Source of the DNA: Eledone cirrhosa
Lineage: Eukaryota
NCBI GenBank assembly: GCA_964016885.1
Contig: OZ024743.1
Coordinates: 280,674,001 to 280,738,000, forward strand
Length of the DNA stretch: 64,000 nucleotides
Direction of reading: 5' to 3'
Part shown: in pieces, positions 502 through 13,578 of the stretch
Layout: each line of letters opens with the position of its first letter
How positions within the stretch are numbered: the first letter of the stretch is position 1
The notes under the pieces: model-generated
The model's database searches: none
What the model was told of the DNA's origin: nothing
The model's input: only the letters and a program-made list of their open reading frames with translations
Position numbers and translations under genes: made by a program

Positions 502-838
502 GTCCGTAAAAGAGATAACTAGGTAAACTTTATCTGGCTGTCCCTCGCGGAAGATAGTCTGTATCATTTGTCTATTATTTCTTCATAGTTACATTTTAAA
601 CTTATAGCCTCGTTTAAATGATTATTTATGTGGTTGATTTATACGGACTAAGGGGAGGAAATACTGTATATATTTTATCTAATAATTCTTCAAACTTGCA
701 ATTTTATATATAGCTCTGATTAATGATTATTTGCTTAATTAATTCTTCATTGAGCCACACCGTGAAAGGTAGCCAAACTCATATATGTATCTGTGACTAT
801 GTCAAATTATATATATATATATCCCTTTGAATTTTATA

Positions 839-1708
839 TTTCCGCAAAATACATATAGTTAGCACCCCAAACATAAAATTGGGATTATACTAAGGTATAT
901 CCTAATGTTTGTTGAGTGAGATGGTAGCCAGTCAGAGTATAGCTTAAGGCTTTCTCTGTTAATGTATTGAATATTTTACTCTTGATTTGGCCAGAGATGA
1001 ACATTTCCAGATACCTTTTAAGCGTAACTCTCCGTATTTATTATTATTATGAAATATTGATTGTTATTCTGGTATCATATCTCTGTTTTTAGCCTAAGAA
1101 AATACCTATATGCGTGTATAATTAATATATGCATACATTTATTTTTTTAAAATCTAATTGAGTTCTTAACACGCAGGGTTAAAATTGTTGAAAAAATTAA
1201 TTGACCCACGTGTAAATTATTTTACTTTCTTGTGTTTCGCGATTGCCTCCCTTTTCCGCTTCGTGATGCTGTGAAATTCCTCATTCTGAGACTGCTGGAA
1301 TTTCAAATTTGGCGGTCATTATGATGCGAGAAGGGACAATTTTCTGACACGAAAACTGACATTGGTAAGAGATTTTTTCTCATATCAATGTTTGACGGGC
1401 ATCCACTGATGATTTATAAGTGCCCACCTGCATATGTTCTTACAGAAAAATGTGCAGGCTTCTACATAACCCGGACACATTCTCCCAACTTGTAGAAAAC
1501 TTATAATGAAACAATTGTTTGGAAAGGGAGATATATTTTAATTTTAATTATATCTCATATAAAATAATACAACTGGCTTTCCGCAAAATACATATAGTTA
1601 GCACCCCAAACATAAAATTGGGATTATACTAAGGTATATCCTAATGTTTGTTGAGTGAGATGGTAGCCAGTCAGAGTATAGCTTAAGGCTTTCTCTGTTA
1701 ATGTATTG
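839..1708 (+). mobile_element. Unclassified non-coding structured element: 739-bp unit plus 131-bp terminal direct repeat, inside (TA)n
   Basis: 839-969 is identical by eye to 1578-1708. (TA)n lies at ~808-822 and ~1709-1725. The ORF track shows no ORF here, and multiple stems with G-U pairs form on the + strand. Confidence 0.6.
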
Positions 1709-1736
1709 TATATATATATATATATGTGTCTACTTT

Positions 1737-4469: not shown

Positions 4470-4510
4470 CGGCGGGGAATTAGTTTTGCGAGGTTTTTTT
4501 ATATGAAATC

Positions 4511-5449
4511 GTGTGTCGAAACAAACACTATGTTAAACCCATGGCCTCCAAATACCTGATACTCAAAAACTCAGCAATGTCCAGTAGTGCTAGGTTTAAT
4601 ATTCTGATCGCAGATTTGGTACGAGTGATGAAGAATGTGTCCCGCATGTGCGACCCAACAGAAATGGAAAGACACATCCAACACTTCATCAACCGCATGC
4701 AGTTCTCTGGCTACAACCAAAGAGACAGAGTCAGAGTATACAAAGGAGCCATGGAGAAGTATAAGACCCTCATAGAACTGGACATGAAAGGAATTTGCCC
4801 ATTATACAGGAGCAAATCATGGAATAGCTTAGATAGGGCTAGACATAAGATAGGGAAAGCCACCTCATGGTACGACAACCAGAGATACCAGAGTGTCATG
4901 TTTGTGGACGCTACCGCTGGAGGGAAATTAGCTAACCAGTGTAGAAAGGCCCTGAGAAAGACCCACTTAAAAATTAAGGTGGTAGAAAAGCCAGGAACCA
5001 CCATAAAATCCCTGATCAGCAAAACCTACCCTTTTAAGAAAACCCACTGTACCAATAGGAAATGTATCATATGTAAGGTAAACCCCCGGATAAACTGTAA
5101 AACTAGAAACGTAGTCTATAGCATAAGATGTACAGAGGGTACTTGCAGAAATATGACAAGAACATACATAGGTGAGACAGCTCGTAGCATAGGTGAAAGA
5201 ATAGACCAACACTGGGGGGAACTAAAAGGACGAAAAAACGAGTCAGTACTATACGAACATTCCAGACAACAACATGACGGTAACATAGACAACATAGAAA
5301 TTAGAATAATATCTAAACATAGAAATGACCCAGCAGATAGGCAAATCAGAGAGGCCAGTGAAATAGAACTTAGAAGACCAAAACTAAACAGAAAGAATGA
5401 ATGGAATAACAACACCCAAACAAACAACACTGACCTAAGAGAAGTATAA
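4511..5449 (+). CDS. 5'-truncated Penelope-like retroelement ORF: RT thumb, Cys-rich linker, GIY-YIG endonuclease
   Basis: YVKPMAS...SAM...RMQFSGY thumb region, CTNRKCIIC linker, NVVYSIRC...YIGETARSIGERIDQH...LYEH...H...RQIREA nuclease motifs. The frame is uninterrupted for 312 codons and the RT catalytic core is absent. The annotated start is probably not a real start. Confidence 0.9.
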   Translation: MCRNKHYVKPMASKYLILKNSAMSSSARFNILIADLVRVMKNVSRMCDPTEMERHIQHFINRMQFSGYNQRDRVRVYKGAMEKYKTLIELDMKGICPLYRSKSWNSLDRARHKIGKATSWYDNQRYQSVMFVDATAGGKLANQCRKALRKTHLKIKVVEKPGTTIKSLISKTYPFKKTHCTNRKCIICKVNPRINCKTRNVVYSIRCTEGTCRNMTRTYIGETARSIGERIDQHWGELKGRKNESVLYEHSRQQHDGNIDNIEIRIISKHRNDPADRQIREASEIELRRPKLNRKNEWNNNTQTNNTDLREV

Positions 5450-5938
5450 ATAAGTAAATAAAATAAAATAAATAAATAAATAAATAAATAAATACATACA
5501 CAAGCACATAAAAACACACTAGTCACCCAATCATGAACACACATCACACATCAAACAAAACACTATACACACACACAAACGCATGCGCAAAGAAGACAAA
5601 ATAGAATAAACAAACAAGCAAATAAATAAATAAATATATAGACAGACTGAATAAAAATGGCGTAGACATACAATACAACGGGAGGAAACAATAGCACCAC
5701 TGACGATGTTGCAGATGTGCAACGAAAGATTTATGATAAACTATATATATGTGTTTGTGTCTATATTGTATCTGTATTATTTTTGACCGTCGGTCAGTCA
5801 ATGGTAACATTGAGGACCGAGTAAATTAGGTTACCGATATAAAAGATACAGAAGCGAAAAGCGAAAACCAACCAAACAGTGAGTGTGTTCTGTTATTAAT
5901 TCTGGCAATATTACACAAATATGACCCTCCCCAAGTAT

Positions 5939-5946
<8 letters not shown>
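4520..5946 (+). mobile_element. Penelope-like element copy (ORF 3' half, UTR and pLTR with hammerhead), ending in (TA)n
   Basis: The ORF above, a hammerhead at 5696-5737, and a terminus matching the solo repeat at 5-268, followed by (TA)n. Confidence 0.85.
5696..5737 (+). ncRNA. Minimal type-I hammerhead ribozyme motif in pLTR
   Basis: acca-CTGACGA-t-gttgca-gatg-tgcaac-GAAA-gatt-TA-tgat. Stem II is a perfect 6 bp and stem I has one mismatch. PLE terminal repeats are known to carry minimal hammerheads. Confidence 0.75.
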
Positions 5947-12942: not shown

Positions 12943-12945
<3 letters not shown>

Positions 12946-13578
12946 ATTATCCTTCTCTTCTCTACTTTCGCCCGACCACACCTTGAATACTGTTGTCCAC
13001 TGTGGTCTCCCCACACGAAACAAAGTATCATGAAACTTGAAGCTCCTCAAAGGGCAATCACGAAAAAGATAGATGGCATGTCAGACCTTGACTACTGGGG
13101 TCGATTGGAAAACCTGAAACTTTACTCACTCCAACGTCGCCGTGAGCGTTATATTATCTGCATGATGTGGAAAATGTTCCATCATCACTGCCCAAATGAT
13201 GTTGGCATCGCCTTCAAGATACGCCCAAGGCTTGGGCCCCGTGCTATCCGTCCCATTCAAAAATCTAAATCGCAACTCATAACAACAATACGGCACAATT
13301 ATTTCACCTCAATCGGCCCTGCTCTCTTCAACATCACACCAGGACACGTCAAAACAGAAACTGACCACACAAAATTCAAGAAGTCTTTGGACAAATTCCT
13401 CCAAGTAATCCCGGACAAACCACCCACACCCGGATATGTCTCCGCAAACAGTAATTCTCTTCTCGAATGGGCCATGGTGCCCAAATCCTGAATTGAAAGA
13501 CTTCGCCAGGTGGTGCTATTAAGTTAGACATGGCCTGGGCCAATACTGGCCAAAACATTTCAAAGTTATTCAAAGTTA
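12942..13578 (+). mobile_element. 5'-truncated CR1-group LINE (ORF2 C-terminus, stop 13489-13491, short 3' UTR) inserted in (TA)n
   Basis: [13 protein letters not shown]...[40 protein letters not shown] is the typical CR1-group post-RT motif. The frame is open to the stop, and the tail ttcaaagtta occurs twice before (TA)n. Confidence 0.88.

Follow-up and report, generated by a model that had tools for sequence, protein, structure and literature searches.

A candidate non-LTR retrozyme with a split type I hammerhead in a (TA)n-inserted repeat family of Eledone cirrhosa

The window analysed here is a 64,000-nt stretch of the Eledone cirrhosa genome, and the feature under study is a non-coding repeat near its start that lies between two (TA)n runs (Table 1). 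An exact terminal repeat with a period of 739, (TA)n on both sides and the lack of an ORF had been reported in the initial annotation, and all three were reproduced: the two repeat copies were 100% identical over 131 nt, the TA runs were found at 808-822 and 1709-1725, and only stop-to-stop frames of 50-56 aa overlapped the unit. The element had been placed at 823..1708; the repeat within these limits stood, but the start did not. As most other copies found in a DNA search of the genome matched only from 839 (query position 17) onward, the filler at 823-838 was excluded from the element. Moreover, since the copies end at or near 1708 and extend upstream to variable extents, 970-1708 was taken as the unit and 839-969 as a truncated upstream copy. 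An internal module of ~240-270 nt (979-1215, approximate limits) is doubled in a subfamily with units of 989-1,009 nt, as judged by eye from loci L066, L079 and L089. Elsewhere in the window, the 3' end of a LINE-like frame (12944-13577; a 261-aa stop-to-stop frame) lies between TA runs, and a 35-nt satellite with strong G/T skew occupies 14983-64000, as an array up to 20000 and as sequence of like composition to the window end.

Table 1. Features of the element and its flanks, in window positions
Feature	Position	Strand	Basis
Upstream (TA)n run, inferred to belong to the target microsatellite	808..822	.	sequence
16-nt filler from TA run to element start; outside the element	823..838	.	match limits of other copies
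Upstream copy of the unit's 3' domain, 5'-truncated; pseudo-LTR-like partial tandem	839..969	+	100% identity to 1578-1708
One full 739-nt unit, non-coding	970..1708	+	sister-copy cut-to-cut periods of 738-743 nt
Three-hairpin module, ~240-270 nt, approximate limits	979..1215	+	by eye from L066, L079, L089; unit lengths
GGGCA/UGCCC pairing, strand before helix I to insert start	1397..1425	+	pair counts, minimum-energy fold
Type I hammerhead, split	1402..1523	+	comparison of subfamilies, RNAalifold, pair counts
Hammerhead helix I	1402-1405/1520-1523	+
Hammerhead CUGAUGA core	1406-1412	+
Hammerhead helix II	1414-1420/1500-1506	+
Helix II insert, 79 nt, hairpins 1427-1458 and 1460-1497	1421..1499	+	RNAalifold consensus, pair counts
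Hammerhead GAAA	1508-1511	+
Hammerhead helix III, palindromic	1511-1518	+
Predicted cut after GUU	between 1519 and 1520	+
3' multibranch domain, conserved, with AAUACA/UGUAUU as closing stem; base of the domain is where insertions end	1566..1707	+	pair counts, 3' ends
(TA)n run directly 3' of the fixed end	1709..1725	.	sequence; same junction in 79/88 sampled loci

The whole genome (3.0 Gb) was searched for copies. The DNA search returned 3,384 first-look candidates, and the 40 scored contained 56 matches of 89-100% identity on many contigs, nearly all ending at or close to the position equivalent to 1708. A 20-nt motif of the 3' domain gave 6,937 exact matches genome-wide and one 3' junction pattern gave 1,065, with 0 matches for the control in either case. 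The family consists of thousands of dispersed copies. In other loci the upstream partial copies span 30 nt to over one unit, and the longest copies exceed two units. A second subfamily is 72-76% alike to the window family and is young, its best 40 matches being 98-99% alike. The periods between predicted cut sites are 700-707, 738-743 and 989-1,009 nt, plus one deleted form of 517 nt.

Insertion ends were determined in a sample from the 3'-motif list, consisting of the first 30 loci and 60 of the 65 next ones (5 upstream tandem duplicates were dropped). These 90 loci, all within the first 68 Mb of contig C1, represent 88 distinct insertions, and in 79 of the 88 the element stops at TGTATT, with (TA)n within 12 nt. 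Units adjoin either another unit or (TA)n, and the ends are a fixed 3' junction and a variable 5' truncation, unlike those of LTRs. Two cut sites were present in 8 sampled loci, and about 6 of the 88 keep two whole ribozymes. By eye, no autonomous element with the same 3' domain was seen among the 88 loci; Penelope-like protein fragments occur in some flanks and were read, by flank inspection only, as separate nested insertions. The copy-number search proposed by the initial annotation therefore agreed with its suggestion of a retroposed repeat, as the element is multicopy, dispersed, of more than unit length and has a fixed 3' end in (TA)n. None of the three outcomes that it had named as refuting, namely, a single copy with a non-significant fold, a match to an annotated UTR or LTR, and a local duplication, was observed.

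A structured plus-strand RNA had also been proposed, and folding was in line with this: the window element had z-scores of -8.7 on the plus and -3.1 on the minus strand (20 shuffles). Strand asymmetry was weaker for a sister copy folded as a circle (-8.9 on plus versus -7.8 on minus, 12 shuffles), and a longer subfamily folded in the same way had -6.7 on plus versus -4.1 on minus. In the circular folds of the plus strand 63-66% of the bases were paired, as in a self-paired monomer. The stems listed earlier were kept in 12 divergent units, with 58-99% of cells paired depending on the stem: 98-99% for attggga/tcctaat and ttctaca/tgtagaa, 91% for cctgcatat/atgtgcagg, 89% for gggcat/gtgccc, 73-85% for the stems within 992-1213, and 58-82% for parts of the rod at 1242-1340, a stretch that aligns less well and in which another hairpin competes. 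In the same units, ACUGG/CCAGU in the 3' domain was paired in 60 of 60 cells, with a double change in 4 of 5 pairs. This domain is the predicted enzyme-binding site and internal start of reverse transcription. In the rod, two pairings are available to the conserved ACUGCUGG (1272-1317), namely, tgaaattcc/ggaatttca at the rod centre (82% paired) and a hairpin involving UGGCGGUC (76%), and together they could form a pseudoknot. A SECIS-like reading of the rod was weighed by eye and dropped.

The initial annotation had found no complete hammerhead and had considered a different or unknown processing motif. Neither statement survived, as a complete type I hammerhead with an ordinary core lies at 1402-1523, its halves CUGAUGA (1406-1412) and GAAAC (1508-1512) being 95 nt apart. 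A CUGANGA and GAAA core, an NUH triplet and helices I-III are all present, with the open helix I of type I topology. UCCA/UGGA forms helix I (CCCA/UGGG in family B) and UUAUAAG/CUUAUAA forms helix II (AUUAUAGGA/UCCUAUAAU in family B); helix III is the palindrome ACAAUUGU, with ACGAUCGU or longer in others and GUU or GUC as the triplet. Of the three abutting hairpins described before, the pairing was kept but not their status as separate units, since two make up the helix II insert and the third overlaps the ribozyme. The insert adds a second multi-way junction to the predicted fold. The third pairing, GGGCA/UGCCC, belongs to the minimum-energy fold of the window copy; it was 94% paired with 3 G-C pairs and no double change. 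It was considered as a tertiary contact between helices I and II, and is predicted to be either a pseudoknot or a competing inactive fold. Genome-wide, the split-core pattern had 2,491 exact matches (control, 0). The suggested comparison with Rfam ribozymes missed the split hammerhead: the scan of 600-2000 gave 10 matches at E up to 10, the best at 0.31, with no gathering score and no hammerhead.

The hammerhead was evaluated with two alignments. From the 22 representatives of alignment A1, L020 and L046 (false positives) and L017 and L025 (near-duplicates) were excluded, and from the 13 of A2, L066. Unaided, RNAalifold returned the three-way junction with two hairpins within helix II for 18 variants and again for 12 whole units. 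In the hammerhead pairs, 94% of 701 cells were paired and a double change was seen in 12 of 39, a result reached by 0 of 500 shuffles, while controls slid along the alignment gave 37-54%; these covariation counts are inflated, as the subfamilies are related and the structure was derived from the same alignment. Because the rows of A1 and A2 were picked by the core pattern, core invariance in them is circular, and the test was repeated without this bias on those members of the 3'-motif sample with enough upstream sequence, 50 loci in all, which were chosen without the core. All 11 core bases were intact in 47 of these 50 copies, and mean conservation was 0.99 in the core versus 0.82 elsewhere (reached by 0 of 5,000 permutations). 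N7 was U in 39 copies, A in 8 and C in 3, and N17 was U in 25, C in 23, A in 1 and a gap in 1, never G. Hammerhead rules predict this very pattern, N7 being free and N17 any base but G. Core positions were numbered after PMC4209133 and PMC3088659. The element likely cuts its own RNA.

Nevertheless, the hammerhead could be an inactive pseudo-LTR relic disabled by the insert, which would leave the element a passive non-autonomous repeat. The hammerhead fold lies above the minimum-energy fold, by 6.7 kcal/mol for the window copy and 4.8 for family B (calculated without dimer or pseudoknot terms), family A combines the GUU triplet with a U-U pair at 10.1-11.1, and 8 of 9 Xenopus retrozyme dimers stayed uncut in vitro (10.64898/2026.07.22.740005). 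However, the core is kept across subfamilies that are only 72-76% alike while the free positions N7 and N17 vary, helices I-III covary, and U10.1-U11.1 is a tolerated natural variant (PMC3088659). The 5' ends of the copies also pile up after the predicted cut, as described below. The gap of 6.7 kcal/mol suits a ribozyme assisted by dimer formation or by protein (PMC4209133, PMC11167929). A relic is accordingly considered improbable.

A DNA-level origin, either as a Helitron-like rolling-circle element or as a locally duplicated satellite with incidental structure, was regarded as still less probable. One-ended rolling-circle transposition also yields one fixed end and tandem units, and thus fits this part of the data. 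But the RNA structure covaries, the hammerhead core is on one strand, the fixed 3' and truncated 5' ends follow the orientation of the ribozyme, and the copies are dispersed over many contigs.

The position of the 5' ends bears on how the RNA is used as a template. Between the predicted cut and the fixed 3' end downstream of it lie 189 nt, which puts the start of copying within the RNA. A Poseidon element was shown in vitro to initiate internally on unprocessed RNA, with no need for hammerhead cleavage (PMC11167929). Each 5' end was assigned from a local alignment with the closest reference, and the placement is rough for a few loci where the length of the reference or of the locus set a limit. 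Fourteen of the 88 lie at +6 to +19 relative to the predicted cut (scan p = 0.00015 versus uniform); 46 ends map from -200 to +99, and each remaining 20-nt bin of this range holds 0-5 of them. Three further ends lie at about -1, +11 and +18, one unit farther upstream. The pile-up overlaps an ATATAT tract at +11, and microhomology with the target may contribute; no comparable peak, however, is seen at seven further tracts of ATAT type. As 65 of the 88 copies run past the predicted cut, circular or uncut RNA must be copied too.

Together, the non-coding units in tandem or partial-tandem copies agree with a retrozyme, and the 5' truncation, partial tandems, fixed internal 3' end and (TA)n target agree with a non-autonomous Penelope-like element. 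The unit contains no RT plus GIY-YIG ORF as an autonomous Penelope-like element does, and, with type I topology and ends unlike LTRs, it differs from the plant-type LTR retrozyme, which has a type III hammerhead in two LTRs. We infer that the element is a non-LTR retrozyme, with self-cut RNA that is likely circularised and likely copied into (TA)n by a Penelope-like enzyme; this reading is given a probability of roughly 0.65. Under it, a locus bearing two ribozymes would be transcribed, and the hammerheads would cut at the predicted site, probably as dimers through the palindromic helix III, freeing a monomer of 700-1,000 nt. Ligation of some monomers would follow, with a host RtcB-type ligase as the probable agent. 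The (TA)n would be nicked by a Penelope-like RT/GIY-YIG protein, for which the young Hydra-clade family described below is the likeliest source, and copying would start internally at the base of the 3' domain, ~190 nt past the cut. If the RNA is cut and linear, the RT would run off near the cut and leave copies of ~180 nt; if it is circular or uncut, the RT would pass the cut and the copies would exceed one unit. With one ribozyme only, the window copy would release no monomer alone.

The same family and kind of enzyme could also work without a circle. The templates would then be linear multimers, uncut or cut in part, that stem from tandem loci and are copied from within, and the hammerhead would trim 5' ends only. 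Internal initiation on unprocessed RNA, as in the Poseidon element (PMC11167929), would allow this, partial tandems are normal among Penelope-like elements (PMC8557442), and the Hydra element of this genome makes tandems of 6.68 kb. Moreover, neighbouring units differ at sites polymorphic elsewhere, 37 in family A and 10 in family B. In family A, neighbouring units of one locus were closer to each other than to units of other loci in 24 of 24 loci (2.4% versus 5.6%), with 206 shared versus the 37 discordant sub-lineage variants; in family B the within-locus likeness was weak (5 of 8 loci). Such likeness fits one template lineage per insertion, which may equally be a circle or a homogeneous linear multimer. 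Against linear multimers, two whole ribozymes are kept in so few loci (~6 of 88) that multimer sources are few, yet copies of more than two units occur, and the related coral, mussel and axolotl retrozymes were shown to be circular (PMC7229834). Hence linear templating alone is considered rather unlikely, although it is the foremost competitor of the circular route.

Sequencing-run contigs were counted neither way. Run X4, which lacks a library record, behaves like RNA, as a host gene in it shows a GT..AG spliced joint. Its contigs cover 26 of 30 element bins and give no ends, strand, level or circularity. As X4 also holds an intronic element copy and other intron pieces, read-through could explain the coverage. 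The intronic copy (L181:1380-1650) is a deleted variant with a changed core, and the exons flanking it, of a gene that we take to be filamin-like, are spliced in X4. Element pieces were also recovered from run X5 (organism B, a small share).

The source of the enzyme was sought among the Penelope-like elements of the genome. A looser core pattern gave 5,212 matches, some double-counted (control, 57), and listed families with different inserts, one of which sits before the start of a Penelope-like ORF. With the protein of that ORF as query, many 830-aa open frames were found in the 150 scored of 16,134 candidates. These frames bear the RWR, DKT and CxCx5C motifs, which PMC8557442 describes for the Hydra clade; clade labels given here to Penelope-like proteins rest on the motifs in that paper. 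In the hammerhead of this Hydra family, helix I is 10 bp long, helix II spans 104-115 nt and helix III is ACGAUCGU, as in one retrozyme subfamily; the motif has 6,716 exact matches in the genome. In about half of 30 loci its 3' ends are at AATATTTTAT, directly followed by (AT)n, just before CTTGA. The retrozyme junction AATATTTTACTCTTGA resembles this 3' end, and TTGAGTTCTT lies downstream in both. Beyond such short motifs, no significant homology was found between the retrozyme profile and the Hydra pseudo-LTR (nhmmer best E 0.27).

Owing to its similar split hammerhead and 3' junction, the young Hydra family is the likeliest enzyme donor, and on sequence grounds it is favoured at somewhat better than even odds. 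A Naiad is an unlikely partner, even though published cephalopod Naiads prefer (TA)n (PMC8557442), and a Neptune-type element is unlikely to the same degree; some other element would be surprising. A second young Hydra family had no split hammerhead in 30 of 30 loci and no significant homology to the retrozyme. A copy of the favoured Hydra family (L222:2009-4951; G000:C1:183748000-183757999) has an 830-aa frame in a 6.68-kb tandem unit, with a long TA/TG-rich untranslated part and a split hammerhead with a rod-like helix II; the motif matches of the family often lie in short inverted pairs. In the window itself, TA runs enclose the 3' part of a Penelope-like element (4484-5943), whose 321-aa frame has a CX4CxxC linker and a GIY-YIG-like C-terminus. 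By motif this (TA)n-inserted element is of Neptune/Nematis type (4484-5449), and by eye a short-helix hammerhead core lies near 5700-5730. A Pfam search returned no name for either Penelope-like protein.

Compared with known systems, the element is closest in kind to the metazoan non-LTR retrozymes (Cervera and de la Pena 2020, PMC7229834; Li et al. 2026, 10.64898/2026.07.22.740005). Both are non-coding, are repeated in tandem or partial tandem, have a single type I hammerhead in each unit, are low in GC and strongly self-paired, and co-occur with Penelope-like elements. The units here are longer (700-1,009 nt versus ~170-400 nt for invertebrate retrozyme RNAs, with a vertebrate consensus to 972 bp), and they differ in the 79-nt branched helix II insert, the strict (TA)n target and the fixed internal 3' end. 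The copies here are mostly dispersed and truncated and are known from genomic sequence, whereas those retrozymes are known from RNA circles. The minimal hammerheads in pseudo-LTRs of Penelope-like elements (Cervera and de la Pena 2014, PMC4209133) likewise have a 4-bp helix I, a helix II of 7-9 bp and a short palindromic helix III, a form of helix III that suits dimer cleavage according to that source; here U-U or A-U replaces G10.1-C11.1, loop 2 is huge and structured, and no ORF lies between the ribozymes.

Elements of the Hydra clade (Craig et al. 2021, PMC8557442) share the (TA)n insertion, 5' truncation and partial tandems, and the Hydra-type family of this genome has the split hammerhead and short junction motifs in common with the retrozyme, but the retrozyme encodes no protein and has no extended pseudo-LTR homology to them. 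Published Hydra elements were described with canonical hammerheads (PMC8557442). Chlamys elements, e.g., MRC1, are likewise non-coding Penelope-like parasites with pseudo-LTRs and head-to-tail copies, although non-autonomous Chlamys elements generally share 3' sequence with an autonomous family and the clade has been described as having no canonical hammerheads (PMC8557442). In the discontinuous hammerhead of mammalian Clec2 mRNA (PMC6155905) the core halves are also split by a long insert. That ribozyme is of type III, with an insert of 150-1,500 nt in helix I in a host mRNA, whereas here it is of type I, with the insert in helix II of a mobile repeat. In the available, mainly non-subscription literature, which included parts of PMC3088659 and PMC10085705, neither this family nor such inserts in helix II of Penelope-like elements were found to be described. 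Against this literature, the kind of element is known and the ribozyme architecture, a branched helix II insert, is new.

Split hammerheads were not confined to this family. A relaxed type I scan of 307 loci, family-enriched by design, gave 198 matches versus 1 in the reversed sequence, with spacers of 13-18, 26-38, 45-65, 89-97 and 104-114 nt. Other (TA)n families (L004 near 400, L088 near 316 on the minus strand, L196 and L021) have core halves 50-55 nt apart; L004 and L088 are partial tandems of roughly 480 nt with no ORF, and their families are probably further retrozymes. In addition, older repeats (75-85% alike; L182-L186, L288-L307) have a split hammerhead with a 91-93-nt spacer and a GUA triplet, and end in (TA)n; no ORF could be linked to them. 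As the hammerhead descriptor of PMC8557442 uses a spacer of 7-17 nt and, like Rfam, misses abundant hammerheads with 50-115 nt spacing, animal ribozymes may be undercounted.

The role of the hammerhead in Penelope-like elements has been placed between a circle model (PMC4209133) and cleavage that is dispensable in vitro (PMC11167929). With thousands of insertions, cut and start sites 190 nt apart, and a young candidate enzyme with many open frames, this role becomes testable in the genome and at the bench. Tentatively, and with the chances rather against it, hammerheads with a long helix II may be an overlooked architecture of (TA)n-targeting Penelope-like elements. If this is true, the telomerase-like RT would bind to a platform made up of the insert together with the recurring structural modules, and reports of a 'half core' for some clades, as in octopus and squid Naiads (PMC8557442), would be explained. 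The 5'-end pile-up would then be a genomic record of cutting in vivo, and cut and re-joined RNA would both be retrotransposed.
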